Shown here: in pieces, positions 5,817 to 23,974 of the stretch
Numbering within the stretch: position 1 is the first letter of the stretch
How the letters are laid out: each line of letters opens with the position of its first letter
Assembly (NCBI GenBank): GCA_963739245.1
Contig: CAVTZP010000007.1
Coordinates: 26,927-90,926 of the forward strand
Reading direction: 5' to 3'
DNA length: 64,000 bases
DNA from: an uncultured delta proteobacterium
Lineage (GTDB): Bacteria > Chloroflexota > Dehalococcoidia > Dehalococcoidales > BS750m-G39
Made by a program: the position numbers and the translations under genes
Notes under the pieces: generated by a model
The model's input: only the letters and a program-made list of their open reading frames with translations
Told to the model about the DNA's origin: nothing
Database searches by the model: none

Positions 5817-6683
5817 TCAAAGATACGGGGCTAATACCCTCATTGGTGATACTATGTTTCGTGACAGCCCCAGGGCGTCAGGCTTGATACCCAGGGCGAC
5901 ACCGACCAGTTGCGTAAGGAAGAGGACGGGAAGGTTATACTTGGTCTTGAACCGGCTGTTGACCTGGCTCTGGTAGGCATCAAGGTTAATCTGACACAAG
6001 GGGCAGGGGGTAACCAGACATTGGGCGCCATTCTCCTGGGCATTGCGCAAAAGTTTATTAATCAGCTCCAAGGCCACCCCTGGCTCAGGCATAACCAGAG
6101 AGCTACCACAGCAACGAGCCTTCAGCTCCCAGGAAACGACATCAGCCCCAAGACTGGCTACCAGCTCATCCAGTGAGTGGGGGGACTCCGGGTCATCGAA
6201 GCCATCGGGACGAACCAACTGACAGCCGTAGTACGACGCTACCCTAAGCCCCTTGAGGGGCTTGGTTACCTTAGCCCTGATCGCCTCAGGGGTAATATCG
6301 TTATATAAGACCTCAGCCAGGTGCCGAACCCGAACTCCTCCCTTATAGTCCAAACCAGCCGCAGCCAGTGCCTCACCTACCTTCTTTTTGAGGATGGGGT
6401 ATTCCTTAAGATGGACATTGGCTCCGTGTAAGACGACAAAACAATTGGAGCACGGGGTTACCAGGTCAAGTCCGGTCTTTTCCGCCAGTACTAGATTTCT
6501 GGCGGCAATGCAGGCCGCCTCCAGCTTATCTACCGAACCGTAGGGGCTGGAGCCGCAGCAATTCCAATCATCAAGCTCAACCAAGTCCATATCCAATTCC
6601 TTGGCAACAGGTAGGACCGAAAGACCTAAGTGTGAAGCTGTAGCCTCAGCTGAGCAACCAGGGAAATAGGAATAACGTTTCAT
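5817..6683 (-). CDS. hdrB: heterodisulfide reductase subunit B-like (two CCG domains)
   Basis: 288 aa with two CCG-domain motifs: NCCGSS...PCSNC and RCCGSS...PCPLC. Confidence 0.85.
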   Translation of the reverse strand: MKRYSYFPGCSAEATASHLGLSVLPVAKELDMDLVELDDWNCCGSSPYGSVDKLEAACIAARNLVLAEKTGLDLVTPCSNCFVVLHGANVHLKEYPILKKKVGEALAAAGLDYKGGVRVRHLAEVLYNDITPEAIRAKVTKPLKGLRVASYYGCQLVRPDGFDDPESPHSLDELVASLGADVVSWELKARCCGSSLVMPEPGVALELINKLLRNAQENGAQCLVTPCPLCQINLDAYQSQVNSRFKTKYNLPVLFLTQLVGVALGIKPDALGLSRNIVSPMRVLAPYL

Positions 6684-7231
6684 TTAGCACCTCCCAGAAC
6701 CCTGGCTTTATTCAGGATAGCCCTAAGTTCGCCTATTCCCTTTATCCGGCTTGGCTTTAGTGGCAGGCGCTGATGCAAAAGTAACCCCAGCCCGACCGGT
6801 GCTAGCTTAAGGGCGGCAAAGGGATTGGTTTTAAGGAAGAGCTTGAGCATCATGCCGAGCTCATATACCCGCCCATTGCCCTTAGCTGAGTCAACAAAGC
6901 ATTGATACATCACCGGTGTCCGGCTTAGCCTGGTGCTCAAGCCATTCTTGATAGCTAGGACTTCCAGGGCATGCATAATATCCGTAGGCTTAATGTCCCG
7001 CGGGCAACGCACGGTGCAGGCATAACAAGAAGCACAGAACCACATGGAATTGCTGGATAATAACTCGTCCCTCAGCCCAGCCCGCACCATAGCAATAGTC
7101 TGCCGCGGTGCGTAGTCCCATTTGGTAGCAGTAGGACAGGAGCCGGTGCACATACCGCACTGAATACAGGAACGAATAGCCTCGCCACCGGGGACGGAAC
7201 ACACCTCATCAATAAAGCTCATCTCAGCCAT
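6680..7231 (-). CDS. hdrC: heterodisulfide reductase subunit C-like (2x[4Fe-4S])
   Basis: 183 aa with CIQCGMCTGSCP and CASCYACTVRCP motifs. Translationally coupled to hdrB by a 4-nt overlap. Confidence 0.8.
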   Translation of the reverse strand: MAEMSFIDEVCSVPGGEAIRSCIQCGMCTGSCPTATKWDYAPRQTIAMVRAGLRDELLSSNSMWFCASCYACTVRCPRDIKPTDIMHALEVLAIKNGLSTRLSRTPVMYQCFVDSAKGNGRVYELGMMLKLFLKTNPFAALKLAPVGLGLLLHQRLPLKPSRIKGIGELRAILNKARVLGGAK

Positions 7232-7246
7232 TTAGATTCCTCCTTC

Positions 7247-10200
7247 TTATACCAAAACCCCCTCTATCTCAGCCATTAATTCCCGGGTAGTAAAGTGCCT
7301 GCCAGCAATGGCGCCGCTGGGACAGGCAGCTACGCACACACCACAGCCCTTGCATAGCGTCTCGTTAACCCGGCTGACCCTCTTTTCCTCATCAAAGGAA
7401 ATGGCATGGAACGGACAGAGAGCACTACATGTCTTGCATCCGGAGCAGAACTCCTCGTCAACCACGGCCGTAGTCGCCTCAATCTCTATTTCGCCGGCAG
7501 TGATGGTAGCCAAAGCCCGGGCGGCAGCCGCTGAAGCCTGAACCACACTCTGCGGAATATCCTTGGGCGACTGACAGCAGCCGACGACGAAAATGCCATC
7601 GCTCATTGTTGCCACCGGGTCAAGCTTGGGGTGCTTCTCCAGGAAGAAACCATCGGCACTTCGACTGAGTGAAAACAGCCTAGCCATCTCATCGGCATCT
7701 GCCCTCGGTTGGAGAGCCGTGCTCAATACTACCATATCAACCGGGACACGGCGCTGGCGACCGATGAGGGTGTCCTCAACGACTATAATAAGCTTGCCCT
7801 GCTCCTCGGGACTCTCGGTGATATTGGTTACCTCCGCCGGGCGGCCACGGACAAATATTGTCCCTTCATCAAGAACGCGGTTATAGAACTCCTCAAAGGC
7901 TTTACCCACGCATCGGAGGTCAATATAGAATTCGTAGACCTGGGCTCCGGGGACATGCTCTCTTATCAGGTGACCAAACTTCATTGAGTACATGCAGCAC
8001 ACCTGCGAGCAATACTCATGATACTTCTTATCCCGGCTACCCACGCAGTGGATAACACCCACCGTCTTGGGATGGGAGCCATCCTTCAGCTTAACCTCGC
8101 CGCTGGTTGGTCCCGAGGCATTAATCAGCCGCTCAAACTCAAAGGCGGTGATGACATTATCAAGACGTCCATAGCCATAATAGTAGAGCGGAGTCGGGTC
8201 AAAGGCATCGTAGCCAGTAGCTAGGATTATGTTACCAACCTCCACCTCCACTAGCTCCTCCCTCATCTCCTGATTGATTGCCCCGGCTTGGCATATCTTA
8301 ACGCACTCCATGCACTCAGAACACACACCACAATTCAAGCAACGCTTGGCTTCGTCAATAGCCGTCTTTTCATCAAAGCCGAGCTCAACCTCGGCAAATC
8401 CCTCCCGCCTCTTAGGGTCAAGCGTTGGCATAGTATGCCTTGCCCTGGCTACTACCCCCTGCTTTGACACCTCTTTCACCCTGGTGATAGGGGCTGGTCT
8501 CCCCGCTTTCAGGTCAACCCCCCTGAGGTGGCGGTCTATTGAGATGGCGGCTTCCTTGCCCGCAGCAATGGCGGCAATGACATCGTCAGGACCGGAAACT
8601 ACATCGCCACCGGCAAAAACACCCTCAATGTTTGTCTGCAGGGTTACCTGGTCAACAGCCAGAGTCCCCCACCCGGTGTATTCAAGCTCCTTGGGCAGCG
8701 CTGCCTTATCCATCGCCTGCCCGATGGCGACAATTACACTATCAACATCCATATTGAATTCCGAGCCCTTAATCGGCATCGGGCGCCGACGGCCACTGGC
8801 ATCAGGTTCCCCCAGCTCCATCCGAATACACTGGATGCCAGTTACCCGCTCATCCTTAGCTAGAACCCTGACCGGCGCGGTCAGGAGGTGGAGATTTATT
8901 CCCTCACGCTCCACCTCATCCATCTCAGTGGAAACAGCGGGCATCTCAGCTCGGGAGCGCCGATAGACAAGAGAAACCTCTTTTGCCCCAAGGCGATGGG
9001 CTACCCTAGCGGCGTCTACCGCCGCATTGCCCCCGCCGATAACCACCACCCTCTCCCCAAGGTCAACCTTAATCCCCAAGCTAACCTGCTTTAGAAAATC
9101 CAGGGCATGGATTACACCCTTGGCGTCTTCATTAGGTATCCCCATCTTCAAACTTTCCCCGGCACCGCTAGCCAGGAATATGGCTTCATAGCCCTGACTG
9201 AAGATATCCTCAAGGTTCTTCATCGGGGCATTGGTCTTTATCTCCACCCCCAGCTCTTCAATATAGCTAATTTCATTAGCCACTACCTTCTTTGGCAGCC
9301 TGTGTTCAGGGATACCGTAGCGCAGAAGACCACCGCTTGCCGGGGCAGCCTCAAAGACGGTAACCGGATATCCTTGCCGTATCAGGTCGTAGGCGCAGGC
9401 CAATCCCGCTGGACCAGAGCCAATAATCGCTACCCTATCTTCCTTCGTCCGTTCAATCGGGGTTGCCTTCTTCCTCCCCACCTTCAGCTCGTAATCAGCC
9501 ATGAAACGCTTTAGAGCGCGGATGGAAACCGGCTCATCAACCTTCCCCCGCTCACACTCCAGCTCACAGGGGTGAGTGCAGACACGCCCGCAGACGCCGG
9601 CAAAGGGCATAGTTCGCCGCAGCACCTCAAGGGCTTCCTTAAACTTACCCTGAGAGATAAGGGCGACATACCCCTGGGCATTTACCCCGGCCGGACAGGC
9701 AGAGCGGCACGGTGGGTAGCCCCGCTTATCAACAGTAAAGGCATTGGGCACCGCCTGAGGGAAGGGCCTATAGATTGCCTTCCTCTGCCCCAGCCCAAGG
9801 TCAAACTCGTTGGGTACCGTAACGGGGCAGGAATTAGCACACTCACCACAGCCGGTGCACTTATCAATATCTACATATCTAGCCTTCTTTTTTATCTTAA
9901 CCTTGAAGTTGCCAACATACCCTGAGACATCAACCACCTGGCTATAGGACATTAGCTCAACATATGGGTGAGCCCCAGCCAGACTCATCTTAGGGGTAAG
10001 AATGCAAGCCGAGCAGTCAAGGGTGGGGAAGGTCTTATCCAGTTGCGCCATATGCCCCCCAATGCTGGGCGTTCTCTCCACCAGGTAGACCTTATGCCTG
10101 GAATCAGCAATCTCCAGTGCCGCCTGAATGCCGGCAATGCCCCCTCCCACCACCAGGGTATTGGGGTTGACCGGGACTCTCTTGGGCTCCAGGGGCTCCT

Positions 10201-10588
10201 GATAGGCAACACGCCTTATCGCGGCGCTAACCAGAGCCTTGGCTTTCTCGGTGGCAGCAGCACGGTCTTCGGTTATCCACGAGCAATGCTCCCTGATATT
10301 AGCCATCTCAAAGAGGTAGGGGTTTAATCCTGATTCCTGGCAGACCCGGCGGTAGGTTCGCTCATGCAGCGTTGGGGAACAGGAAGCTACCACCACCCGA
10401 TTAATCCCCAGCTCCTTAATATCCTGTCGGATAAGCTCCTGCCCTGGGTCAGAACACATATACATATAGCGGCGAGCAATAGCTACAAAAGGCAATTCCC
10501 GGGCAAATTCAGTAACCGCTTCCACATCCACCGTGCCCGCGATATTGGTCCCACAATGACAGACATAAACACCGATTTTGGGCTCCAC
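7247..10588 (-). CDS. hdrA: HdrA-like flavoprotein with a nested GltD/NfnB-like NAD(P)H-binding module
   Basis: 1113 aa, GTG start preceded by GGAGGA. It has an HdrA N-terminal Cys domain (VYVCHCGTNIAG), the FAD motif VVGGGIAGIQAA, and a C-terminal 2x[4Fe-4S] domain. Residues ~288-690 are a complete glutamate-synthase-small-subunit-like module (GRVCTHPCELEC, IIGSGPAGLACAY, VIGGGNAAVDAA, FAGGDVV). Confidence 0.85.
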   Translation of the reverse strand: MEPKIGVYVCHCGTNIAGTVDVEAVTEFARELPFVAIARRYMYMCSDPGQELIRQDIKELGINRVVVASCSPTLHERTYRRVCQESGLNPYLFEMANIREHCSWITEDRAAATEKAKALVSAAIRRVAYQEPLEPKRVPVNPNTLVVGGGIAGIQAALEIADSRHKVYLVERTPSIGGHMAQLDKTFPTLDCSACILTPKMSLAGAHPYVELMSYSQVVDVSGYVGNFKVKIKKKARYVDIDKCTGCGECANSCPVTVPNEFDLGLGQRKAIYRPFPQAVPNAFTVDKRGYPPCRSACPAGVNAQGYVALISQGKFKEALEVLRRTMPFAGVCGRVCTHPCELECERGKVDEPVSIRALKRFMADYELKVGRKKATPIERTKEDRVAIIGSGPAGLACAYDLIRQGYPVTVFEAAPASGGLLRYGIPEHRLPKKVVANEISYIEELGVEIKTNAPMKNLEDIFSQGYEAIFLASGAGESLKMGIPNEDAKGVIHALDFLKQVSLGIKVDLGERVVVIGGGNAAVDAARVAHRLGAKEVSLVYRRSRAEMPAVSTEMDEVEREGINLHLLTAPVRVLAKDERVTGIQCIRMELGEPDASGRRRPMPIKGSEFNMDVDSVIVAIGQAMDKAALPKELEYTGWGTLAVDQVTLQTNIEGVFAGGDVVSGPDDVIAAIAAGKEAAISIDRHLRGVDLKAGRPAPITRVKEVSKQGVVARARHTMPTLDPKRREGFAEVELGFDEKTAIDEAKRCLNCGVCSECMECVKICQAGAINQEMREELVEVEVGNIILATGYDAFDPTPLYYYGYGRLDNVITAFEFERLINASGPTSGEVKLKDGSHPKTVGVIHCVGSRDKKYHEYCSQVCCMYSMKFGHLIREHVPGAQVYEFYIDLRCVGKAFEEFYNRVLDEGTIFVRGRPAEVTNITESPEEQGKLIIVVEDTLIGRQRRVPVDMVVLSTALQPRADADEMARLFSLSRSADGFFLEKHPKLDPVATMSDGIFVVGCCQSPKDIPQSVVQASAAAARALATITAGEIEIEATTAVVDEEFCSGCKTCSALCPFHAISFDEEKRVSRVNETLCKGCGVCVAACPSGAIAGRHFTTRELMAEIEGVLV

Positions 10589-10758: not shown

Positions 10759-11817
10759 ATGGAGCAAAAGCAGTCCCCGCAGATGAGGCAGGAGCTAAGG
10801 CAAGTCCTCAGAATGGAGCAGGCAACCCTGCTGGAGATGCCTGAGGAGGAGTTCCAAAAGCTCATTGTCGAGATAGAGAGAAATCCCATCTTTCAAAGGC
10901 TGTACCAGAGGGAGGAGGTAATCCGCCGCCAGAGATTCCCCAGGACTGATATTTCCTCCAACTTCTATCAAATTAAACCGGAGCTAGTAGCTGATATCGG
11001 CTCACTTGATGTCGAATCTCTTCTGCTCAACAAGAAGCACATTGCCCATCAGATACAGAAACTGGGAATAGAAAAATTCAAGCGGTATTTCCTATTTCCT
11101 GAATCAGGGATGAGCGCAGAAGAAATCGCCGGGGAATGCAACCTGGCTGTTTCCGAGATGCAAAAGATTAATCGCCTCATTGATGAGTTCTCCATCTTGA
11201 GCGAGTTCTATCACCCTTCAGCTCTCAGCTCTGGAGGGGTGTATTATAGCAAGATTGCCTCAGTGGAGAAGAACCGGGAGGGCTTTATCATTGGCTACTT
11301 TTCACCCTCCCTCGCCCGGGGGAGGTATTCCATTGATTATGAAAGGTTTGAGCAATTAAAGGATACCCTAACCGCGGTTGAGATTAAGCAAATCAGGCAG
11401 TTATTAAAGAAGGTGGAGCTCGTCAATACCCGCAAGGATACCCTAACCCAGATACTGCAAGCCGTTGTTGAACGCCAAGCACTTTATCTGGAGTCTGGCG
11501 ATTTGAAGGCGCTCCTACCCTTCAACCAGAAGGAACTGGCCAGAAAGATCGGGCTTGCCCCCAGTTCAGTAAGTCGCGCCATCAGGGGCAAAAGCATTGA
11601 CACGCCGTGGGGTGAAGAAGTCCCGCTTAAGCACTTTTTCCCCAGACCGAAGAGTTTTAAGAAGGAGCTTTTAAGACAGCTTCTTGAAGCCGACAGGGAG
11701 CTTCCCTCCGATGAGGCAATCAAGGCAAGGCTACAGGATAAATTCGGTGTTGCTATCTCCCGGCGCTCGGTAGCCAACCTGAGGAAGGAACTAAAAATCT
11801 CACCAAGAAGGAGCTGA
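10759..11817 (+). CDS. rpoN: short sigma-54 (RpoN) family protein
   Basis: 352 aa. The N-terminus is region-I-like (LRQVLRMEQATLLEMPEEEFQKLIVEIERNPIF). The C-terminus has the sigma-54 DNA-binding HTH (SSVSRAIRGKSIDTPWGEEVPLKHFF) and an RpoN-box-like ISRRSVANLRKEL. Confidence 0.75.
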   Translation: MEQKQSPQMRQELRQVLRMEQATLLEMPEEEFQKLIVEIERNPIFQRLYQREEVIRRQRFPRTDISSNFYQIKPELVADIGSLDVESLLLNKKHIAHQIQKLGIEKFKRYFLFPESGMSAEEIAGECNLAVSEMQKINRLIDEFSILSEFYHPSALSSGGVYYSKIASVEKNREGFIIGYFSPSLARGRYSIDYERFEQLKDTLTAVEIKQIRQLLKKVELVNTRKDTLTQILQAVVERQALYLESGDLKALLPFNQKELARKIGLAPSSVSRAIRGKSIDTPWGEEVPLKHFFPRPKSFKKELLRQLLEADRELPSDEAIKARLQDKFGVAISRRSVANLRKELKISPRRS

Positions 11818-11818
11818 A

Positions 11819-13759
11819 ATGAGCATAGTTTATACTGACCGAGAAAAATGTAAGGGGTGCTATGCCTGCATCCGCATTTGTCCATGTAAGGCAATCAAGG
11901 TGGAGGAGGGCTTGGCCCAGGTGATAAAGGAACGCTGTATCGCCTGTGGCACCTGCCTTCAGGTCTGCGCTCCAAAGGCAAAGCAGGTGGAGAGCGACAT
12001 CGGGACAGTCTGGCAATTACTGACACAATATCCTAATGTAATCGCCGTCCTCTCCTCATCATTCCCCGCCGCCCTGCTCAAATGCAGCGCCGGACAGCTG
12101 GTAGCTGCCCTGAAAAAACTAGGGTTTAGCGAGGTTATGGAAGACTCCTTCGGTGCTGAGCTTGTTGCCAGGGAATATGCCCGGCTCATAAGTAAAGACA
12201 AAGGTAAGCCCCTTCTCTCCTCTAACTGCTCGGCAGTGGTAACCTACATTGAGAAATATCATCCTCAGCTAGTTGGCAACCTGGCGCCCATTGTTTCGCC
12301 AATGATTGCCACGGGCAGGATAATCAAATCGCAGTATAATCCCCAGGCTAAGGTAGTCTTCATTGGTCCCTGCGTAGCCAAGAAGGCAGAGAGCCGGGAT
12401 GAGAAAGTGGCCGGAGCCGTAGACGCCGTCCTGACCTTTGCCGAGCTGAAGGAGATGTTTGCCGCCAAAGGGGTTACCCCTGAAACCGAGGGAAGGGAAC
12501 CATTCTCCGGTCCCACACCCGGCATTGGTCGTCTCTTCCCATTGTCAAAAGGGCTATTCAGGGTGGCTAGACTACCCGAAGATATTGTTAAAAATGACAC
12601 GATAAACGCCCATGGGAAAGACTACGTGATTAGAATCCTTCGGGAATTCGCTGAGGGAGAAATCACCGCCAGACTTATTAACCTACATTTCTGCCATGGC
12701 TGCATTGATGGACCGGTTATTGATAATGAGCTGAGCGGCTTCAGGCGGAAGGAGCTTGTCGCCAGCTATGCTCGCAGCGAGATGAACCCGGACCAAACCG
12801 AGAAGGATATCAAGGAGTACTCCGGCACTGACCTTAAGCGCAAGTTTACCGCCCGAGGTGTGGGACTGGCAACGCCGAGTGAGGAAGAGGTCCAAAGCAT
12901 CTTAAAGAAGATTGGCAAGGAAGAGCCAAACCAGATAGACTGCGGCGCCTGCGGGTATAGCACCTGTCGGGAGCTGGCAATCTCTGTTTGCCAGGGCTTA
13001 GCTGAGGTTGAGATGTGCTGGCCATATGTGCTTCAGACGTTAAGGTCTACCCAAGAAGGCCTGATCCAAGCCGAGAAGCTGACCTCTTTGGGTCAGCTGG
13101 CAGCCTCCGTTGCCCACGAGATTAACAATCCTCTGGCCGGTGTCCTCGTCTATACCCAGTTACTAGCCAAGAAGATAAATAGCGACACATTCAGCAAAGA
13201 AAGTGCCACCGAATATCTGTCAAAGATGGAGACTGAGCTCATCCGCAGCAGCCGGCTAATCCGAAACCTTCTGGACTTTGCCCGGCAATCACCACCGAGG
13301 TTCTGGGAGGTGGACATTAACGAGGTCATTAACCGAAGTTTTGAACTTGCGGCTCACTCTGCACAACTACAGCACGTTCAGGTATTAAAAGAGCTTGACC
13401 CGGCACTGCCAAGGATTTCAGCTGATTTTGACCAGCTTCAGCAGGTTTGCACCAACCTTATTATGAATGCCATTCAGGCAATGCCAAATGGAGGTACGCT
13501 GACCATACGCACCTCGGCTGATAACACTCAGGTCAAGATAGAGGTTCAGGACACTGGTGTTGGCATTTCTCCGGAGAACATGCGCAAGCTGTTTACCCCC
13601 TTCTTCACCACCAAGCGGGAGGTGAAAGGGGTGGGGCTGGGCCTGGCGGTGTCCTATGGAATTGTCCAGCGACATCGGGGAAGGATTGAAGTGCAAAGTA
13701 AAGAGGGAGAGGGTACCACCTTTAACGTCTATTTACCACGGCACCATGAAGAAAGCTAA
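11819..13759 (+). CDS. soluble [FeFe]-hydrogenase-like sensor histidine kinase
   Basis: 646 aa, no TM segments. In order: 2x[4Fe-4S] ferredoxin motifs (CKGCYACIRICP, CIACGTCLQVCAP); H-cluster-domain-like motifs SSNCSA, GPCVAKKAE and FCHGCIDGP; a 4-Cys motif DCGACGYSTCRELAISVC; then HisKA (SVAHEINNPL) and HATPase_c (DTGVGI, GVGLGLAV). Confidence 0.8.
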   Translation: MSIVYTDREKCKGCYACIRICPCKAIKVEEGLAQVIKERCIACGTCLQVCAPKAKQVESDIGTVWQLLTQYPNVIAVLSSSFPAALLKCSAGQLVAALKKLGFSEVMEDSFGAELVAREYARLISKDKGKPLLSSNCSAVVTYIEKYHPQLVGNLAPIVSPMIATGRIIKSQYNPQAKVVFIGPCVAKKAESRDEKVAGAVDAVLTFAELKEMFAAKGVTPETEGREPFSGPTPGIGRLFPLSKGLFRVARLPEDIVKNDTINAHGKDYVIRILREFAEGEITARLINLHFCHGCIDGPVIDNELSGFRRKELVASYARSEMNPDQTEKDIKEYSGTDLKRKFTARGVGLATPSEEEVQSILKKIGKEEPNQIDCGACGYSTCRELAISVCQGLAEVEMCWPYVLQTLRSTQEGLIQAEKLTSLGQLAASVAHEINNPLAGVLVYTQLLAKKINSDTFSKESATEYLSKMETELIRSSRLIRNLLDFARQSPPRFWEVDINEVINRSFELAAHSAQLQHVQVLKELDPALPRISADFDQLQQVCTNLIMNAIQAMPNGGTLTIRTSADNTQVKIEVQDTGVGISPENMRKLFTPFFTTKREVKGVGLGLAVSYGIVQRHRGRIEVQSKEGEGTTFNVYLPRHHEES

Positions 13760-15107
13760 GGTTCTCGTTGTTGATGATGAAGCCATTATCCGCCAGTCAC
13801 TTCATGACTGGCTAAGCGACGCCGGTTACAAGGTGCTCACTGCGGAAAATGGACCAAAAGCCCTGGAGACTATTCAAAGGGAAGGTCCGAGGATTGTTAT
13901 TACTGATTTAGTCATGCCGGGGATGGATGGAATCGAGCTAATGAAGCGAGCCAAGGAGATATCCCCTGACATTGAAGTTATCGTCATTACCGCTTATGGA
14001 AGCATCCCTACCGCTATCAGCGCAATGAGAGAAGGAGCCTATGACTATATTGAGAAGCCATTCTGCCCAGAAAGGACTGAAATATTGATTGAAAAACTGG
14101 TGGAGCACCAAGGACTAATTGAGGAAAACCTTTCCCTGCACCAGAAATTGGAAGAGCGTTACCGATTTGAAAATATCATCGCCAAGAGTCCCAGAATGCA
14201 ACAGGTGATTGAGGTAATTAAGGTTGTAGCTAAGAGCAATGCTACTGTACTAATTACCGGCGAGACCGGCACCGGGAAGGAGCTGGTAGCACGGGCTATC
14301 CACTCCCAGAGCTACCGTTGTGGCAAGCCCTTTATTGCTGTCAGTTGTGCCGCCCTGCCTGAGACTCTCCTTGAGAGCGAGCTATTCGGTCATGAGAAGG
14401 GAGCTTTTACCGGGGCTTATGCTCAAAAGAAAGGGAAGTTTGAAATCGCCAGCCGGGGAACCCTGTTTCTAGACGAAATTGGCGAGATGAGCACTAATAT
14501 CCAGGTTCACCTGCTGAGGGTCCTGGAGGAGAAGGAATTCACCAGGGTTGGGGGCAATGAGCCAATTAAGGTTGACGTGCGGGTTATTTCCGCCACCAAT
14601 AGAGCCACGAAGGAGGCAATAGCCGAGGGGCGATTTCGGGAAGACCTCTATTATCGGTTAAACGTGGTCAACATTGAATTGCCTCCGTTAAGAGAGAGGA
14701 AGGAAGACATTCCCCTTTTAGCTCAGCATTTTTTGAAGGAGTTCGCCCTGGAGAATAATAAAGAAGTTAGCGGGTTTTCCTCCGAGGCTACCGATTTTCT
14801 ATTGAGATACGATTGGCCGGGTAATGTCAGGGAACTGGAAAATGCTATTGAACGAGCAGTCATACTTGCCCAAAAACCCCTAATTGAGCTTGATGACTTG
14901 CCTCAACAAACCTTGGTAGCCCCCTCAATCTCAGCGGAGAAAAACCTTAGGCAGGTGGAGAAAAACCATATTTTGAATGTCCTGGCTCAGACCAAGGGGA
15001 ATTATACCGAGGCAGCCAGAGTCCTGGGCATCTCAAGAATGACCCTCTATAATAAAGCCAGGGCATACGGAATAAATGTAAAGAAAGTAGACAAAGCCGA
15101 TAGTTAA
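13746..15107 (+). CDS. sigma-54-dependent response regulator (NtrC family bEBP: REC-AAA+-Fis HTH)
   Basis: Preferred start is MKKAKVLVVDDE at 13746, a 14-nt overlap with the kinase; the track start at 13656 is less likely. It has a receiver Asp (ITDLVMPG), Walker A GETGTGKE, the sigma-54 contact loop GAFTGA, and a C-terminal HTH (AARVLGISRMTLYNK). Confidence 0.9.
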   Translation: MKKAKVLVVDDEAIIRQSLHDWLSDAGYKVLTAENGPKALETIQREGPRIVITDLVMPGMDGIELMKRAKEISPDIEVIVITAYGSIPTAISAMREGAYDYIEKPFCPERTEILIEKLVEHQGLIEENLSLHQKLEERYRFENIIAKSPRMQQVIEVIKVVAKSNATVLITGETGTGKELVARAIHSQSYRCGKPFIAVSCAALPETLLESELFGHEKGAFTGAYAQKKGKFEIASRGTLFLDEIGEMSTNIQVHLLRVLEEKEFTRVGGNEPIKVDVRVISATNRATKEAIAEGRFREDLYYRLNVVNIELPPLRERKEDIPLLAQHFLKEFALENNKEVSGFSSEATDFLLRYDWPGNVRELENAIERAVILAQKPLIELDDLPQQTLVAPSISAEKNLRQVEKNHILNVLAQTKGNYTEAARVLGISRMTLYNKARAYGINVKKVDKADS

Positions 15108-15142
15108 GCCTTCAGCTTAAAATAGAGACGAGGCTATTGTTT

Positions 15143-15158
15143 TGGCAAGAAAATTGCA
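15143..15158 (+). promoter_or_regulatory. sigma-54 (-24/-12) promoter
   Basis: TGGCAA-GAAAA-TTGCA compared with the consensus TGGCAC-N5-TTGCW: exact spacing and one mismatch. It lies 53 nt upstream of the ATG at 15211, in the only sizeable intergenic gap of the locus. Confidence 0.75.
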
Positions 15159-15210
15159 TCTACTAAAAGTGGGAATAGGAATAGAAAGGCGGGTAACTGG
15201 AGGTAAATAG

Positions 15211-16206
15211 ATGAAACCAATACTGGTAGTAGAAGATGAAAGCATTGTGAGAGAGTCGCTCCGAGACTGGCTTACCGACGAAGGCTATCCGGTAGAGACA
15301 GTGGAGCACGGTGAAGAGGCGTTAAAGGTAATCGGGGAGCAGGACTTCAGCCTCCTCATCCTTGACATGAGGCTGCCGGGGAAAAGCGGGCTTGAGGTAC
15401 TAAGGGAAGCCAAGGCACAAAGACCAAAAATCAACAGTATCATCATTACCGCCTACCCGTCAGTAGAGACCGTAGTGGAGGCAATGAAGTTAGGCGCCGT
15501 TGACTATCTAACCAAGCCGCTTAGCCTTGACACCCTGGAAAAGCTGATTCAGCAGACCCTGGGACCAGTTCAACTGGAGATAAAGCCAAAGGCGGCACTC
15601 AAAGAAGCTACAGTTCAGCCTGCAGAAAAGGCAAAGGTTGAAGAAATCATAGCTATTGCCCCGGAGGAAATCCCGCTTCACATTAAACAGGGAAAGGAAT
15701 ACTTTGACACCGGTCGCTACGCTGAGGCGCTAAGGGAATTTGAGTCTATCCTCGCTATTGCCCCGGCCAACATTGAGACCCGGGTCTGGATTAGAAAGAC
15801 AAAGCAAACCCTGGCCGAGCCAAGGATTGAGGGAGTTGTTGTTGTAGAGGCCAAGCCCAAGGAGTGCCTCTGGATGAAGATGGGGCTGGTGTCTTATCGC
15901 ATCTGCACCCGGGATTATGACTGTCTCACCTGCGAGTTTGACCAGACGATGCAGGAGAAAATGGCGGCGGGGGAAACCCCCGAGCTTGACAAGGCATTGG
16001 CGCGATTCAGGGAGCTGCCAGGTAGTCAGCGGCTTTGCCGCTATGCCATCAAGGGCGATGTCTCCCACCGTATCTGCTCTCGCCTCTTCCAGTGCACCGT
16101 CTGCGAGTTCGGGCAGATGATGGAGGACGCCACCCAGCAAAAGCTAGCCAAGCTACAAGCACGACGGGAGGCGCTACTCAAAAAGGAGCAAAAAGCTAAA
16201 GCCTAA
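15211..16206 (+). CDS. response-regulator receiver protein with a TPR-like linker and duplicated Cys-rich C-terminal module
   Basis: 331 aa. REC domain (LVVEDESIVRESLRDWLTDEGY, LILDMRLPG), a TPR-like segment (GRYAEALREFESILAIAPAN), then VSYRICTRDYDCLTCEF ... LPGSQRLCRYA ... VSHRICSRLFQCTVCEF. Confidence 0.7.
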   Translation: MKPILVVEDESIVRESLRDWLTDEGYPVETVEHGEEALKVIGEQDFSLLILDMRLPGKSGLEVLREAKAQRPKINSIIITAYPSVETVVEAMKLGAVDYLTKPLSLDTLEKLIQQTLGPVQLEIKPKAALKEATVQPAEKAKVEEIIAIAPEEIPLHIKQGKEYFDTGRYAEALREFESILAIAPANIETRVWIRKTKQTLAEPRIEGVVVVEAKPKECLWMKMGLVSYRICTRDYDCLTCEFDQTMQEKMAAGETPELDKALARFRELPGSQRLCRYAIKGDVSHRICSRLFQCTVCEFGQMMEDATQQKLAKLQARREALLKKEQKAKA

Positions 16207-16235
16207 TCAGAACCTCCAGACTAGTGGTATTTAAT

Positions 16236-16271
16236 CAAAGGGTATGCTAAACTACAGCAGCATACCCTTTG
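16236..16271 (+). other. perfect 13-bp stem / 10-nt loop hairpin between the two receiver genes
   Basis: CAAAGGGTATGCT (16236-16248) pairs perfectly with AGCATACCCTTTG (16259-16271). No U-tract follows, and the next ATG is 21 nt downstream. Confidence 0.6.
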
Positions 16272-16291
16272 GCATGAGAAGGAGAAAACCA

Positions 16292-16909
16292 ATGGAAGCC
16301 AAGAAGAGAAAGATTCTGCTCGTAGAAGATGAGACCGTGCTGAGAGAAGCTCTGCGGGACTGGCTTACCGAGGATGGATATGATGTTGAGTGCGTTGACA
16401 GTGGCGAGAAAGCCCTGGACAGGGTCAAGAAGGAACAGTTTGGCGTCATAGTTCTTGACCTGAGGTTGCCGGGCATTGATGGCTTACAAGTTTTTGAGCA
16501 TGCCAAAGAACTCAAGTCAGAAACCAAGGGGATAATCATTACCGCCTACCCGTCAAAAGAGACCCTGGAAAAGGCGAAAAGGCTGGGGCTCCTTGACTAT
16601 TTAGTCAAGCCGTTCAAGCTTGAGGAGCTGGAGAAGTTAGTCAGAGGAGCACTGGGAGAGATCGAGGAAAAAAAATTAGGCAAGGAACACCTATGGTTAG
16701 AGCTCGGTGCTGTTTCCTATCGCCTCTGCGATCGCAACTATGAATGTGGGCACTGCGCCTTCGCCCAAGACATACAAGATAGGTTTGGCACGATAGCCGT
16801 CGTTGGCGAGGATGAGGTAAAAAGATTTAAACAGCTGCCCGGCAGTCAAAGACTGTGCCGGTATGCATCGGCACATTTTGTTAAGAAGGAAAAGGCAGGC
16901 TTAGATTAA
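16292..16909 (+). CDS. response-regulator receiver protein with Cys-rich C-terminal module (paralog of 15211..16206)
   Basis: Preferred start is MEAKKRKILLVEDE at 16292, with GGAG 8 nt upstream; the track start at 16244 lies inside the hairpin. REC domain (LREALRDWLTEDGY, VLDLRLPG), then VSYRLCDRNYECGHCAF ... LPGSQRLCRYA. Confidence 0.7.
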   Translation: MEAKKRKILLVEDETVLREALRDWLTEDGYDVECVDSGEKALDRVKKEQFGVIVLDLRLPGIDGLQVFEHAKELKSETKGIIITAYPSKETLEKAKRLGLLDYLVKPFKLEELEKLVRGALGEIEEKKLGKEHLWLELGAVSYRLCDRNYECGHCAFAQDIQDRFGTIAVVGEDEVKRFKQLPGSQRLCRYASAHFVKKEKAGLD

Positions 16910-17547
16910 GGCTTATCTGTAAAGAAACCTGCCAGCTTATCTACCACATCCCTTTGCCCTATAGCTAGAGTCAGGTCGCTGCGCGTCCTCTCCAGTACCC
17001 CGCGAACCATGTCCGTAGTATGGCGCAGACCCCCGGTTATAGCATCGGGGAAGTCTATTGTGACCAGCACGTTGTAAATATCGTCCATGGCTGACAATAG
17101 TTCCTCTCCCCGAGACAGGTCACCCTGCCTCATACTATCCAACAGGTAGCGTCTGAACTCACCGACAGCCTCACCCATTCCGTTCAGGTAGGCAACGGCA
17201 TCAATACCCAGTTCTTCAGGGTCGGGGAGACGGTTGCCGGTTACCAGGGCAAGGGTAATACTGCCCTCGGCAAACTCCTTTTGTGCATCCCTGACAAAGC
17301 CGGCATAGCTAAGCTCGCCATAGCTAGAGATAGCCGGCTCAACCTCGGTTAACAGGTTGCGGGCTGATTTGAGCAACTGCGCTGCCTGGGCAAACTCCTG
17401 GCGGTGGACAGCACGGATGGCATTGCCACAGTGACGAATTGCCTCACGACACCGGGGAAGCACCCTTTCCCTAGCCGCATCCCTAGATGATAAAGTCTGG
17501 CGAATGCGGTCAGCAATTGAATCCAAATTGTCGGTCAATCCATTCAT
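16906..17547 (-). CDS. translin-family protein (COG2178-like)
   Basis: 213 aa, all-helical, with YLNGMGEAVGEFRRYLLD resembling the translin-family core. The call is made from memory of that family. Confidence 0.5.
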   Translation of the reverse strand: MNGLTDNLDSIADRIRQTLSSRDAARERVLPRCREAIRHCGNAIRAVHRQEFAQAAQLLKSARNLLTEVEPAISSYGELSYAGFVRDAQKEFAEGSITLALVTGNRLPDPEELGIDAVAYLNGMGEAVGEFRRYLLDSMRQGDLSRGEELLSAMDDIYNVLVTIDFPDAITGGLRHTTDMVRGVLERTRSDLTLAIGQRDVVDKLAGFFTDKP

Positions 17548-21885: not shown

Positions 21886-23448
21886 CTACTTATAAATTGT
21901 CACCCGCCGATGGGGTTCTTTGCCCAGGCTTCTTGACAAGAGGTCGTTTCGCTCGGCAACGAGGTGCTGTAACCGCCGGATATAGGCGCTCTGGGGGCTA
22001 AGCTCCACCACCCCCCTCCCAATCTTTACCTGCTCAACTGCCTCCTCTGCCTCGCCAAGGGCAAGCTTCAGACGGCTGGTTCTGCCGGTGCCGAGGCTAG
22101 GGTAGATAGTATCTAATAACTGCCTGACTTGAGCCGGGGTATTGCTCTTGAGGACGTAGATGGGCAGGCTGGCCGCTTCAGCATCCTTGACCCTCTGCGG
22201 CTTCCGCCGATAGTAGCTTTTAGAGGTTACAAGCAGACTGGCATCTTTTAGGTTGCCGACTATATCCAGGCTCAGTCTTAGCTCTTTCGCCGCCTGCTCT
22301 ATTCTCCCCCGATTTACGCCAAAGAGGTAAAGCCGGGGCGGTTCACCCTCCCTAACCTGCCTTCTTTGGGTAGCTTTCTGCATCATGACCGCCGGAGCTT
22401 GCTTTTCTCTCCTGACCTCCCCCGACTTATCCAGCCAGCGAACCTCAATAGCGACCGGCTGACCACGCAGGATGGCATCAACCGCCTCACTGACGTCAGG
22501 ATGAATGGCTACCCTGTCCCGGTCCTGAATCTCAACGACAATAGCAAAGGTTGGCGGTGACTTCCGCTCCAGTATAGACTTCTGCGTGCCTCTTCGTTTT
22601 GCCTCTTCATCACCAAGGGTTACCGACTGGATACCCCCGATGAGGTCAGACAGGGTAGGGTTCATCATCAGGTTTTCCAGGGTGTTGCCGTGGGCGGTGC
22701 CGACAAGCTGAACCCCACGCTCAGCGATAGTCCTCGCCGCCTGAGCCTCAAGCTCGGTGCCAATCTCATCAATGATGATTACCTCAGGCATATGGTTTTC
22801 TACTGCTTCAATCATCACCGCATGCTGCATAGTTGGGGTTTTTACCTGCATCCGCCGGGCGTGCCCAATAGCGGGGTGGGGAATATCACCATCACCGGCA
22901 ATCTCATTTGAGGTATCAACGATGACCACCCGCTTCCTGAGGTTATCCGCCAGCACCCGGGCGACCTCACGGAGCATGGTCGTTTTGCCCACCCCGGGAC
23001 GACCTAAAAGCAGGACGCTTTTGCCAGTCTGGATGAGGTCATCGATAACCTTTATCGTGCCGAAGACGGCTCGGCCCACGCGGCAGGTAAGTCCGACAAT
23101 ACGCCCCTTGCGATTACGAATGGCGGAGATGCGGTGCAGGGTACGCTCAATCCCGGCACGGTTGTCATCGCCAAAATTGCTGACACGAGAAACGACATAG
23201 TCTATGTCCGGCTGGTCAACCTCCCTGGAGTCGAGAACTGCTTCCCGCTGAAAAAAACGGGCTTCCGGGGGGCGACTCAGGTCAAGGACTACCTCCAGTA
23301 ACTGGCTAATATCCTCCTGCTGAATTAATGGCTGGCGAATATGGGGCGGTAAAACGTTAAGCAGGGCATCTAAATCGTCGGTGATTACCTTCTGCAATAA
23401 CCCCCTCCTAAACGATATCCAGGAAATAGCGGTGGAACCTAGTGTCAC
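21886..23448 (-). CDS. R3H-domain AAA ATPase (SpoIIIAA/Ycf45-like)
   Basis: 520 aa with Walker A GRPGVGKTT, Walker B IIIDEIG and a C-terminal R3H-like segment. The annotated start overlaps pdxT by 41 nt, so the true start may be internal. Confidence 0.65.
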   Translation of the reverse strand: MTLGSTAISWISFRRGLLQKVITDDLDALLNVLPPHIRQPLIQQEDISQLLEVVLDLSRPPEARFFQREAVLDSREVDQPDIDYVVSRVSNFGDDNRAGIERTLHRISAIRNRKGRIVGLTCRVGRAVFGTIKVIDDLIQTGKSVLLLGRPGVGKTTMLREVARVLADNLRKRVVIVDTSNEIAGDGDIPHPAIGHARRMQVKTPTMQHAVMIEAVENHMPEVIIIDEIGTELEAQAARTIAERGVQLVGTAHGNTLENLMMNPTLSDLIGGIQSVTLGDEEAKRRGTQKSILERKSPPTFAIVVEIQDRDRVAIHPDVSEAVDAILRGQPVAIEVRWLDKSGEVRREKQAPAVMMQKATQRRQVREGEPPRLYLFGVNRGRIEQAAKELRLSLDIVGNLKDASLLVTSKSYYRRKPQRVKDAEAASLPIYVLKSNTPAQVRQLLDTIYPSLGTGRTSRLKLALGEAEEAVEQVKIGRGVVELSPQSAYIRRLQHLVAERNDLLSRSLGKEPHRRVTIYK

Positions 23449-23974
23449 TGGTCAGTTCAGGGTGAAAGGCGGAGACCAGAATCTTTCCCTGCCGGGCGGC
23501 AACGCTGGTGCCATTATCCAGCCTGGCCAGTATTTCCACGCCGTCATTTGCCTGCTCAATCACTGGCGCCCTAATAAAGACAGCGGGGAAGGGCTTTTCC
23601 CCCAGCACCGGAATAGAAAGTTCAGCCTCAAAGCTCTCCCGCTGCCGGCCAAAGGCATTACGCTTGACCGTTATATCGATAAGCCCCAGTGGTTTTATCT
23701 CCGAGTCTGAAGCTCCGCTGGCGAGAAGAATCATACCGGCGCAGGTGCCAAATATGGGCAAGCCGTTTTTACCCTGAGCTTTTATTTCGCTCATCAGGTT
23801 GTAGTCCCGCATCAGCTTGCCAATTGAGGTGCTTTCCCCACCAGGAATAATTAGCCCATCCAAGCCAGTAAGCTCAGTGGGCAAGCGGATGGGCAAGGCT
23901 TCTACCTTGAGATTGCGCAATATAGCGATATGTTCGGCAAAGGCTCCTTGCACGGCAAGGACGCCAATTCTCAT
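23408..23974 (-). CDS. pdxT: pyridoxal 5'-phosphate synthase glutaminase subunit
   Basis: 188 aa with GVLAVQGAF, GGESTS and FGTCAG (catalytic Cys). Confidence 0.9.
   Translation of the reverse strand: MRIGVLAVQGAFAEHIAILRNLKVEALPIRLPTELTGLDGLIIPGGESTSIGKLMRDYNLMSEIKAQGKNGLPIFGTCAGMILLASGASDSEIKPLGLIDITVKRNAFGRQRESFEAELSIPVLGEKPFPAVFIRAPVIEQANDGVEILARLDNGTSVAARQGKILVSAFHPELTSDTRFHRYFLDIV

Follow-up and report, generated by a model that had tools for sequence, protein, structure and literature searches.

Two adjacent open reading frames in the 64 kb window, the whole stretch of DNA that was analysed, encode response regulators that carry cysteine-rich elements behind their receivers. This raises the question of what these elements are and what output they could give to proteins that end in them. 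Both frames had been described in an earlier note, and both were recovered here, each with a PF00072 receiver and C-terminal cysteine elements. The genes, named RR1 and RR2, lie downstream of a sigma-54 cassette, and the locus is composed as follows.

5817..10588, minus strand: hdrA(GltD-fused)-hdrC-hdrB-like operon, divergent from the cassette (Pfam)
10759..11817, plus strand: compact sigma-54 of 352 aa, heading the cassette (Sigma54_DBD, E 2e-21)
11819..13759, plus strand: sensor histidine kinase with an N-terminal [FeFe]-hydrogenase-like domain (Pfam)
13656..15107, plus strand: NtrC-type sigma-54 activator with REC, AAA+ and HTH_8 (Pfam)
15143..15158, plus strand: sigma-54 type -24/-12 promoter TGGCAAGAAAATTGCA, 53 nt upstream of the RR1 ATG
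15211..16206, plus strand: RR1, response regulator of 331 aa (open reading frame; Pfam REC, 101 bits)
15220..15549, plus strand: RR1 receiver, aa 4-113, phospho-acceptor Asp52 (Pfam; CheY alignment)
15661..15819, plus strand: RR1 TPR-like helical hairpin, aa 151-203 (TPR_2 below cut-off; AlphaFold helices)
16117..16203, plus strand: RR1 long C-terminal helix (AlphaFold, pLDDT 83-92)
16236..16271, plus strand: hairpin in the RR1-RR2 intergenic region, 13 bp without mismatch and not followed by a T-run (sequence)
16292..16909, plus strand: RR2, response regulator of 205 aa from the ATG at 16292 (open reading frame; REC, 98 bits)

Receivers and layout of the two regulators

The PF00072 Response_reg profile scored 101.4 bits on RR1 and 97.7 bits on RR2 at a cut-off of 30.2. 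The receivers of RR1, RR2 and the NtrC-type activator were aligned with E. coli CheY. CheY residues D13, D57, T87 and K109 are kept in all three, and D12 is replaced by Glu. The three receivers are 43-53% identical to one another. In RR1 the receiver is followed by the TPR-like hairpin, two full Cys4 units and the C-terminal helix, and in RR2 by one unit with a His at the Cys1 position and a stump of unit 2. TPR_2 reached 22.4 bits on RR1 against a cut-off of 27. AlphaFold predicted three helices in this region with a pLDDT of 92-96, and the region is common to RR1 and the stand-alone paralogues described below; precomputed TPR matches are present on some RR1 homologues. The modelled C-terminal helix is possibly a coiled coil.

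The longest open reading frame of RR2 runs from 16244 to 16909 and encodes 221 aa, its 5' end overlapping the intergenic hairpin. The true start is probably the ATG at 16292. A GGAG ribosome-binding site lies ahead of this ATG, and in public gene calls RR2 has the 205-aa form.

The exact RR1 sequence occurs in public collections, where its sole names are 'CheY-like chemotaxis protein' and 'TPR repeat protein'. The public names for RR2 include NtrC/OmpR-type DNA-binding response regulator. This assignment was rejected, as Pfam and NCBIfam detected no AAA+, HTH or winged-helix domain in RR2 and nothing past the receiver. The NCBIfam matches span only residues ~3-160 and stay far under their cut-offs, and the PF01597 GcvH domain is absent from both proteins in Pfam. 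At the level of Pfam-A and NCBIfam profiles, the earlier view that neither regulator has a DNA-binding or enzymatic output domain was confirmed. Two open reading frames that overlap the cysteine region (15730-16140 on the minus strand and 15917-16120 on the plus strand) were discarded as spurious, the RR1 frame being conserved in 125 homologues.

Among the upstream genes, the compact sigma-54 shows a region-I-like N-terminus and the RpoN-box-like motif SRRSVANLR. The kinase combines Fer4, Fe_hyd_lg_C, PF04060 FeS, HisKA and HATPase domains. The divergent hdr operon encodes Pyr_redox_2 with Fer4_20 and Fer4, Fer4_8/17 and two CCG domains.

A tandem four-cysteine module outside the known families

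The cysteine region resolves into repeats of about 30 residues, each with four cysteines in the spacing C-x12-C-x5-C-x2-C.

15865..15945, plus strand: RR1 Cys4 unit 1 CLWMKMGLVSYRICTRDYDCLTCEFDQ, with C219, C232, C238 and C241
15946..16014, plus strand: RR1 linker between the units, two predicted helices (AlphaFold, model residues 31-42 and 46-56)
16015..16116, plus strand: RR1 Cys4 unit 2 with its LPGSQR lead-in LPGSQRLCRYAIKGDVSHRICSRLFQCTVCEFGQ, with C276, C289, C295 and C298
16688..16768, plus strand: RR2 unit 1 HLWLELGAVSYRLCDRNYECGHCAFAQ, with H149, C162, C168 and C171 (221-aa numbering)
16835..16876, plus strand: RR2 unit 2 remnant LPGSQRLCRYASAH, with C205 and H209 invariant in 13 orthologues

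Cysteine elements had been placed at both C-termini with the pattern C-x6-C-x2-C. Their location was correct, whereas the spacing was not: the true triad is C-x5-C-x2-C, and a regular expression with the C-x6-C spacing had no matches. LPGSQRLCRYA, formerly taken for a separate element, turned out to be the head of unit 2 with its first cysteine. The two RR1 units are 39% identical (E 5e-10), indicating an internal duplication, and the RR1 and RR2 modules share 49% identity (E 5e-22). The earlier '3+1' grouping of the cysteines may be right for RR2, because conservation favours C205, kept in 13/13 orthologues, as a ligand over position 149, which is His in 12 of them and Pro in one. We conclude that the repeats make up a domain, about 95 residues long and so far unannotated, in which a helical hairpin joins two homologous units.

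The earlier note could not place the element in a family, and this held after tests against Pfam-A, NCBIfam, PDB sequences and, with Foldseek, PDB structures. When RR1 and RR2 were scanned with hmmscan against Pfam-A and NCBIfam, only the receivers and weak TPR matches were found. A set of 75 diverse modules gave only sub-threshold matches to Pfam that follow Cys composition. Zinc-finger-type matches of this kind occurred in 27 modules, the best being zf-CHY (E 0.007, 15.3 bits against a cut-off of 31.3). The known zinc-finger and zinc-ribbon families (zf-CHY, Zn_ribbon, ZZ and others) were rejected, since none reached its gathering score and Foldseek returned no match. A ferredoxin of the Fer4 clan was rejected on the C-x12-C-x5-C-x2-C spacing and on the lack of a Fer4 match in RR1 and RR2; at a limit as loose as E<=1, the list of families obtained with the 75 modules likewise includes no Fer4. 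The ZAS domain (zf-HC2) was rejected because its H-x3-C-x2-C motif is missing, the residue four positions before C-x2-C not being His (RR1 '..RDYDCLTC', RR2 '..RNYECGHC'), and no zf-HC2 profile match was found in either protein. Sequence profile searches of the PDB gave nothing beyond a chance C2H2 match at E 5.5.

The fold was predicted with AlphaFold. With the diverse alignment of 75 sequences, the module model reached a pLDDT of 87.8 and a pTM of 0.72. With residues 140-331 of RR1 and a shallow alignment of 126 close homologues, the Cys units stayed below a pLDDT of 50. In each unit of the confident model, a beta-bridge residue is located just ahead of Cys1 and of Cys2, and Cys3-x2-Cys4 is found at a helix N-cap. 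A Foldseek search of this model against the PDB showed no neighbour (best E 5.6, TM below 0.27).

Across 125 close homologues each of the eight cysteines of the module reaches 95% conservation or more, and across the 75 diverse modules, down to 23% identity, none of them varies. The earlier note had named two findings that would speak against it, loss of the pattern in homologues and a confident profile match to a characterised domain; neither was observed. The pattern is far beyond chance. Natural variants that lost a cysteine are mostly gene fragments; the few real ones are affected mainly at Cys1 of either unit, and they gave no means of deciding between an intra-unit and a cross-braced site. 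Like Cys4 metal domains in general, the module has four invariant putative ligand residues per unit and tolerates Cys/His exchange. The metal or Fe-S site suggested earlier is consistent with the invariant cysteines and with the Cys-to-His swap. We infer that the four cysteines of a unit ligate a metal centre, either an Fe-S cluster or a Zn-thiolate, and that the module is probably a new tandem Cys4 metal domain.

Relatives, promoters and gene neighbourhoods

The spread of the module was determined by an exhaustive profile search of 1.84 billion representatives, which gave 488 protein clusters at E<=1e-3. A word-index search with the RR2 module found only 5 proteins, and one with the GcvH-type profile found short proteins only. 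Where a source organism is named, it belongs to the Dehalococcoidia or the Desulfobacterota and is a strict anaerobe; lineage, and not an oxygen-labile cofactor, could account for this.

Its fusion partners are receivers, GcvH-like domains without the lipoyl lysine, a histidine kinase and HoxU-like ferredoxins. In 51 of 146 representative relatives of the module PF01597 GcvH was present, and the lipoyl Lys was retained in one of 46 module-fused GcvH-like domains. In the fusion protein P0132, TPR and module are joined directly to a HisKA/HATPase kinase that is encoded beside a NarL-type regulator, and the link between module and HisKA occupies the position of the C-terminal helix of RR1. In the HoxU-like proteins, the module follows 2Fe-2S and 4Fe-4S domains.

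The promoter upstream of RR1 is the only TGGCA-N6-TTGCA match in the window, where 0.12 would be expected by chance. An equivalent site was observed 53-153 nt upstream of 49 of the 54 REC-fused orthologues, and a sigma-54 promoter precedes 68 of 73 GcvH-type module genes. None of the 22 stand-alone paralogues has such a site, the background being 0.02 per 260 nt. The NtrC-type activator, whose gene is directly 5' of RR1 in most Dehalococcoidia loci, probably acts on this promoter; no inverted repeat hinting at an activator-binding site was found in 14900-15215. Upstream of hdrA in the window no sigma-54 promoter was detected, even with 4 mismatches, and the hdr genes have a sigma-70-like promoter. 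Co-regulation of RR1 with Hdr is not supported in this genome, since the hdr genes are divergent and preceded by a sigma-70-like promoter without a sigma-54 site.

Among 86 tabulated loci, ntrC precedes 56 REC-fused genes, and the majority of these belong to an rpoN-HK-ntrC cassette. In 17 of these 56 Dehalococcoidia loci hdrC/hdrA come immediately after RR1 in the same orientation, and in 10 more they are upstream, as in the window. About 18 REC-fused loci with adequate flanks have no Hdr gene nearby. Of 80 metagenome loci, 63 have the GcvH-type module gene downstream of a histidine kinase, a sigma-54 activator and a peptidase M54, and 23 contain an HdrA-like gene in their 8-kb flanks; the 80 loci represent one sub-clade only, scanned with a closer subset of the alignment. 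In a Desulfacinum-type locus, a module-GcvH gene heads hdrC-hdrB-hdrA. The stand-alone genes encoding TPR and module are divergent from a NarL-type two-component system in 22 of 22 cases. The link to HdrABC at which the earlier note had hinted is supported by this recurrent synteny in two phyla.

A proposed circuit and its alternatives

In the reading that we favour, to which we give an even chance, the new tandem Cys4 metal domain is a redox or protein-interaction module that links a two-component/sigma-54 circuit to Hdr-like complexes. It would be a cofactor-bearing sensing or docking unit that always accompanies two-component signalling and is neither an enzyme nor a DNA-binding output. The hydrogenase-like sensor kinase would phosphorylate the NtrC-type activator, which with the cassette's own sigma-54 would fire the promoter at 15143-15158. 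This promoter would drive RR1 and probably RR2 too. Since the receivers are intact and closely related to that of NtrC, RR1 and RR2 probably take phosphate from the same kinase. They would then act by binding a partner through the Cys modules and, in RR1, through the TPR and the C-terminal helix. The likeliest partner would be the HdrABC-like flavoprotein complex encoded nearby, or else a kinase, and the outcome would be a redox-gated branch or feedback rather than control of transcription.

The small units of about 30 residues might instead be structural zinc finger-like domains for interaction or dimerisation that have no redox role, with RR1 and RR2 serving as sigma-54-induced phosphate sinks in a negative feedback on NtrC. 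The helix N-cap at Cys3-x2-Cys4 and the beta-bridges before Cys1 and Cys2 resemble many Zn knuckle folds, a Cys-to-His swap as in RR2 is common in Zn sites, and the sub-threshold Pfam matches are to zinc-finger families only, none to Fer4. The receivers are intact, and the genes would be induced by the very cassette whose kinase they drain. A sink, however, leaves unexplained why receiver-less versions (the GcvH fusions and stand-alone TPR+module proteins) take the same sigma-54-controlled position, why the module is fused in line after HoxU-like Fe-S domains and why it is used as the N-terminal part of a kinase. The restriction of named sources to anaerobic Dehalococcoidia and Desulfobacterota also speaks against it, and we regard it as possible, if rather unlikely. 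Conserved basic residues next to the cysteines (R230, R274 and R277 are invariant, and relatives show 'RKCRYML') and the frequency of DNA binding among response regulators would fit a nucleic-acid-binding zinc finger, which would make RR1 and RR2 conventional transcriptional or RNA-binding regulators whose DNA-binding output has escaped recognition. Yet no HTH or known DNA-binding profile was found in Pfam-A or NCBIfam, Foldseek showed no match to nucleic-acid-binding folds in the PDB, and DNA binding makes little sense in fusions to GcvH-like domains, HoxU-like ferredoxins and the sensor end of a kinase. This explanation appears very improbable.

The position of the module gene at the head of hdrC-hdrB-hdrA operons suggests a different role, that of a redox-active carrier (thiol/disulfide or cluster) that is the physiological substrate or electron partner of the CCG-domain HdrB and to which the receiver fusion adds control by phosphorylation. 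Hdr-like complexes are known to pair with small carrier proteins, as DsrC does with DsrK and the lipoate-bearing LbpA with the sHdr of sulfur oxidisers. The GcvH-like fold to which Desulfobacterota fuse the module has lost its lipoyl lysine, and therefore the Cys module, with its eight invariant cysteines, could be the replacement redox group. On the other hand, the predicted secondary structure groups the ligand segments of a unit, which is easier to reconcile with a buried metal site than with an exposed dithiol. Moreover, the stand-alone and kinase-fused versions adjoin NarL-type two-component systems and no Hdr genes, and the hdr genes of the window are outside the RR1 operon. We consider a carrier unlikely. 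Equally doubtful is its extension, in which the module is the protein partner that bacterial HdrABC-type complexes have so far lacked, a carrier with a cofactor or thiol on which HdrB acts or with which it trades electrons. Its fusion to receivers in Dehalococcoidia would then allow the hydrogenase-like kinase to gate an electron-bifurcating-type complex directly by phosphorylation of its partner, besides the sigma-54 induction.

The favoured reading, a sensing or docking module, was compared with known systems. Single-domain and protein-interaction response regulators such as CheY, CpdR and the RssB-type adaptors also have an intact CheY-like receiver and no DNA-binding or enzymatic output, and the output of RR1 and RR2 is presumably partner binding as well. 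Unlike these proteins, RR1 and RR2 have an added conserved Cys8 or Cys4 module, plus the TPR in RR1, and their own genes are putative sigma-54 targets of the adjacent kinase/activator pair. The module can also be likened to the Fe-S or Zn-thiolate sensors NreB and RsrA, the latter a ZAS anti-sigma factor. OrpR is described as a sigma-54 activator that senses redox by an Fe-S cluster (PMC8359166). In NreB, OrpR and RsrA, as in the module, a small domain on signalling proteins of anaerobes has a conserved set of four Cys/His ligands, those of the module and its cofactor being predicted from its sequence. The module differs from all three in its C-x12-C-x5-C-x2-C spacing and its tandem units, shows no sequence or fold similarity to them and lacks the H-x3-C-x2-C of ZAS. 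The [4Fe-4S] site of RumA/RlmD is formed by C-x5-C-x2-C plus one distant Cys. This triad with a remote fourth cysteine recurs in the module and serves as a lead only; RumA/RlmD have a TRAM/methyltransferase context, and the module has no sequence or Foldseek match in the PDB. Relatives of the module resemble the LbpA of sulfur-oxidiser sHdr systems in being GcvH-like-fused and encoded beside hdrCBA-like genes. In contrast to LbpA, the proteins of the window have no GcvH domain and the module-fused GcvH-like domains have no lipoyl lysine; to our knowledge, LbpA proteins have no Cys module. Literature searches on a Cys-rich GcvH-like domain or on such a type of regulator found nothing relevant.

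Taken together, Pfam, NCBIfam and the PDB lack a domain that occurs in no fewer than 488 protein clusters of anaerobes. It is hidden under names such as 'CheY-like protein', 'NtrC family response regulator' and 'glycine cleavage system protein H', and defining it would correct many annotations. The domain marks a conserved target gene of a kinase/sigma-54-activator cassette; since the Dehalococcoidia cassette senses via a hydrogenase-like domain, it may reveal what sensory hydrogenases control. Few physiological partners of bacterial Hdr-type complexes are known. The repeated place of the module at the head of, or next to, hdrCBA-like operons in two phyla makes it a candidate regulator, partner or substrate of these complexes.

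Genes, receivers and the repeated cysteine unit

The earlier note had singled out the interval 15829-16909, which comprises the 3' third of the RR1 gene and the entire RR2 gene, for two neighbouring receiver proteins with a repeated Cys-rich module. This description holds, with receivers scoring 101 bits (RR1) and 98 bits (RR2) against a Pfam cut-off of 30 and modules that are 49% identical (E 5e-22). When aligned with CheY, both receivers keep the phospho-acceptor Asp and the Thr/Lys switch residues; the first acidic residue is a Glu. Pfam and NCBIfam gave no other match in either protein, save for TPR matches at RR1 residues 157-191, all sub-threshold. The genes and the promoter are as follows.

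Features of the window
5817-10588, −, hdrA-hdrC-hdrB, divergent from the cassette
10759-11817, +, compact sigma-54, 352 aa
11819-13759, +, histidine kinase with a [FeFe]-hydrogenase-like N-terminus
13656-15107, +, NtrC-type activator
15143-15158, +, sigma-54 promoter TGGCAAGAAAATTGCA, 53 nt before the RR1 ATG
15211-16206, +, RR1, ORF of 331 aa
16244-16909, +, RR2, longest ORF, 221 aa

In the public gene calls RR2 is a 205-aa protein starting at ATG 16292. Since a GGAG ribosome-binding site stands in front of this ATG and the extra 5' codons of the 221-aa form overlap a perfect hairpin, ATG 16292 is probably the true start; residue numbers follow the 221-aa form for comparison with the earlier note. 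The hairpin (16236-16271, +) lies between RR1 and RR2 and has a 13-bp perfect inverted repeat, a 10-nt loop and no T-run behind it. On the other side, a 213-aa ORF (16906-17547, −) without a Pfam match converges on RR2 and overlaps its stop by 4 nt. It is kept beside RR2 and thiE in related loci, with 82% identity in one of them (L010).

What repeats is a unit with four Cys, C-x-[WY]-x10-C-x5-C-x2-C, and the two units of RR1 align without gaps (39% identity, E 5e-10). The spacing C-x6-C-x2-C given previously has to be corrected: an x6 regular expression matched nothing and the x5 expression matched, as encoded by the note's own expression. With the repeat being a four-Cys unit in two gapless copies, LPGSQRLCRYA is not the separate element it was taken for; it is the lead-in and the first Cys of unit 2.

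Cysteine units of RR1 and RR2
RR1 unit 1, CLWMKMGLVSYRICTRDYDCLTCEFDQ, C219, C232, C238, C241
RR1 unit 2, CRYAIKGDVSHRICSRLFQCTVCEFGQ, C276, C289, C295, C298
RR2 unit 1, H149, C162, C168, C171; His replaces Cys1
RR2 ends soon after C205, the first Cys of its unit 2.

Conservation, fold and putative metal site

In an index of 5.8 billion proteins, 194 close relatives of the module are present. Searched exhaustively with a profile, 1.84 billion cluster representatives yielded 488 clusters with E<=1e-3, of which 122 had E<=1e-10. Among 125 retrieved relatives plus RR1 and RR2, each Cys column was at least 95% conserved, and His was the sole substitute at Cys1. When 75 diverse modules, some of them as little as 23% identical to RR1, were aligned, only the eight Cys columns were invariant; nearly so were a Gly, the W that follows Cys1, the Arg behind Cys1 of unit 2 and the Gln behind Cys4. 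The earlier note had named a non-conserved Cys pattern as grounds for giving up its proposal; the Cys are conserved in both sets.

That the module could not be placed in a family and that no output domain was evident were both borne out. An hmmscan of RR1, RR2 and the 75 modules against Pfam-A gave only sub-threshold, composition-driven module matches (top match zf-CHY, 15 bits, cut-off 31), NCBIfam matched only the receivers, and module profiles found nothing among PDB sequences barring a chance C2H2 match (E 5.5). AlphaFold failed on the Cys units with a shallow alignment; with a diverse alignment it yielded a confident model (mean pLDDT 87.8, pTM 0.72). Foldseek of this model against 350,542 PDB chains gave no match (best E 5.6, TM <0.27). 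The module and the regulators also failed each defining test for Fer4, the zinc-finger families, ZAS and the NtrC/OmpR outputs, and the literature searched yielded nothing on this domain. Taken together, the Cys4 unit is real, duplicated and strongly conserved, in a domain without family or fold neighbour. Both the Cys-rich metal-type domain and the response-regulator architecture are new.

In the predicted unit, one beta-bridge residue stands right before Cys1 and a second one before Cys2; Cys1 is followed by a short helix, and Cys3-x2-Cys4 sits where a long helix has its N-cap. The units are joined by two helices. The units would bind metal, with Fe-S and Zn about equally probable and a small chance of no metal at all. 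Whether Cys1 joins the triad of its own unit or of the other one is a question on which the evidence is mixed. Single-unit relatives such as the protein P0270 retain Cys1, which favours an intra-unit site. All 13 RR2 orthologues have C205, while at position 149 twelve have His and one has Pro; this makes C205 the likelier fourth ligand in RR2. The natural Cys losses surveyed did not discriminate between the two groupings.

Conserved sigma-54 control and gene order

On the + strand of the window, sigma-54, histidine kinase, NtrC-type activator, RR1 and RR2 follow each other. The promoter pattern TGGCA-N6-TTGCA has its single match in the 64 kb at 15143-15158, with 0.12 expected by chance. GTDB genomes carry the module gene in 80 distinct loci, nearly all from Dehalococcoidia; with six fetched earlier, 86 were tabulated. 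Receiver fusions account for 56 of the 86, mostly ordered rpoN-HK-ntrC-RR1, and an RR1-type promoter lies 53-153 nt upstream in 49 of the 54 scorable ones (background 0.02 per 260 nt). RR2-type genes occur in 13 loci, after RR1 or directly after the kinase. Receiver-less TPR+module genes make up 28 of the 86 loci, and the RR1-type promoter is missing from all 22 stand-alone genes that were scored.

The arrangement was also found with genes in which the module is joined to a GcvH-like domain, sampled as 80 metagenome loci from one sub-clade. Kinase, sigma-54 activator, peptidase M54 and module-GcvH gene stand in this order in 63 of the 80, and a sigma-54 promoter lies 58-149 nt upstream of the module-GcvH gene in 68/73 (background 0.03). 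The hydrogenase-like kinase appears again in one such locus. Sigma-54 control of the receiver- and GcvH-fused module genes is conserved. Since order and promoter recur at these loci in another phylum, the Cys-module protein, receiver- or GcvH-fused alike, looks like the conserved target gene of a kinase/activator cassette.

The archaemetzincin-like M54 gene is close to the module-GcvH gene in 68/80 loci (L094-L173), mostly between activator and module-GcvH gene, and occurs in further loci (L093, L088, L174). In the compact sigma-54 the N-terminus is region-I-like and SRRSVANLR resembles an RpoN box, and Pfam matches the DNA-binding domain only. As it heads the cassette here and at most Dehalococcoidia loci, kinase, activator, sigma factor and target promoter form a self-contained travelling unit. 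The hydrogenase-like region of the kinase (Fer4, Fe_hyd_lg_C, PF04060 FeS) resembles sensory hydrogenases; its first H-cluster motif is SSNCS, where only a single Cys stands in place of the usual adjacent pair. Another sigma-54-like site, TGGCACCAGCGTTGCC (23498-23513, −, one mismatch), lies within the 3' end of a pdxT-like gene, about 50 nt upstream of a gene for a 520-aa R3H/AAA/PTPase-domain protein (21886-23448), and may have arisen by chance.

Fusion partners, Hdr-like complexes and possible roles

Among the best 146 representatives, the module is joined to a GcvH-like domain (PF01597) in 51, to a receiver in 16, to a TPR-like region alone in seven and to a HisKA/HATPase kinase in one; the remainder are mostly fragments. 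Public sources call the GcvH-like fusions 'glycine cleavage system protein H', Desulfacinum and Desulfosoma being examples. Their lipoyl lysine is missing (relatives P0134-P0264), with Lys in 1 of 46 at a column set by alignment to the E. coli GcvH sequence. Two proteins carry a unit and a GcvH-like domain behind the 2Fe-2S and 4Fe-4S domains of a HoxU/NuoG-like protein.

The receiver-less TPR+module paralogues are about 206 aa long and lie next to thiL-tsaE-tsaB (L001-L006 and 22 GTDB loci, e.g. L018, L042 and L085). Each of the 22 checked lies divergent to a NarL-type regulator, accompanied by its HisKA_3 kinase in 21. One genome (L091, 7001-8428) has TPR+module joined to a HisKA/HATPase kinase, with a NarL-type regulator next to it. 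Such a Rosetta-stone fusion is an argument for the module being able to serve as a kinase's sensing end. Some genomes combine receiver-fused, stand-alone and kinase-fused forms.

Heterodisulfide-reductase-like (Hdr) genes are frequent neighbours. In 17 of the 56 Dehalococcoidia loci hdrC and hdrA directly follow RR1 on the same strand, and in 10 further loci Hdr genes lie upstream (four divergent, as in the window, and six on the same strand), 11 more being too short for judging. In a Desulfacinum-type locus the module-GcvH gene leads hdrC-hdrB-hdrA, with PAS-HK, sigma-54 regulator, M54, FlpD, DUF5981 and MTHFR on the divergent side, and 23 of the 80 metagenome loci have an HdrA-like gene in their 8-kb flanks. 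The module is thus tightly linked to two-component systems and frequently to Hdr-like genes. The HdrA of the window, 1113 aa long, is fused to a GltD-like NAD(P)H module (Fer4_20, Pyr_redox_2); HdrC comes next, and then HdrB, which has two CCG domains. A search before this hdrA revealed no sigma-54 site, which gives no support to co-regulation with hdr in this genome; by eye, a sigma-70-like TTGACC-N17-TAAGAT lies there instead.

As the receivers of RR1, RR2 and NtrC are 43-53% identical pairwise, RR1 and RR2 may be phosphorylated by the adjacent kinase. They would act through protein contact with the Hdr-like complex or a kinase, working like protein-interaction response regulators and a Cys4 metal sensor combined. 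We rank first, at about even probability, that the module is a redox- or cofactor-dependent adaptor or sensor; the kinase fusion and the Hdr neighbourhoods are consistent with this. A purely structural Zn domain on regulators that are phosphate sinks comes next and is rather unlikely. The module as a redox carrier or substrate for HdrB we regard as improbable. Least probable is a nucleic-acid-binding finger. What makes the domain of interest is its breadth, the clean regulatory and synteny signal, and the bearing it has on the communication partners of bacterial Hdr-type complexes and of sensory hydrogenase kinases.
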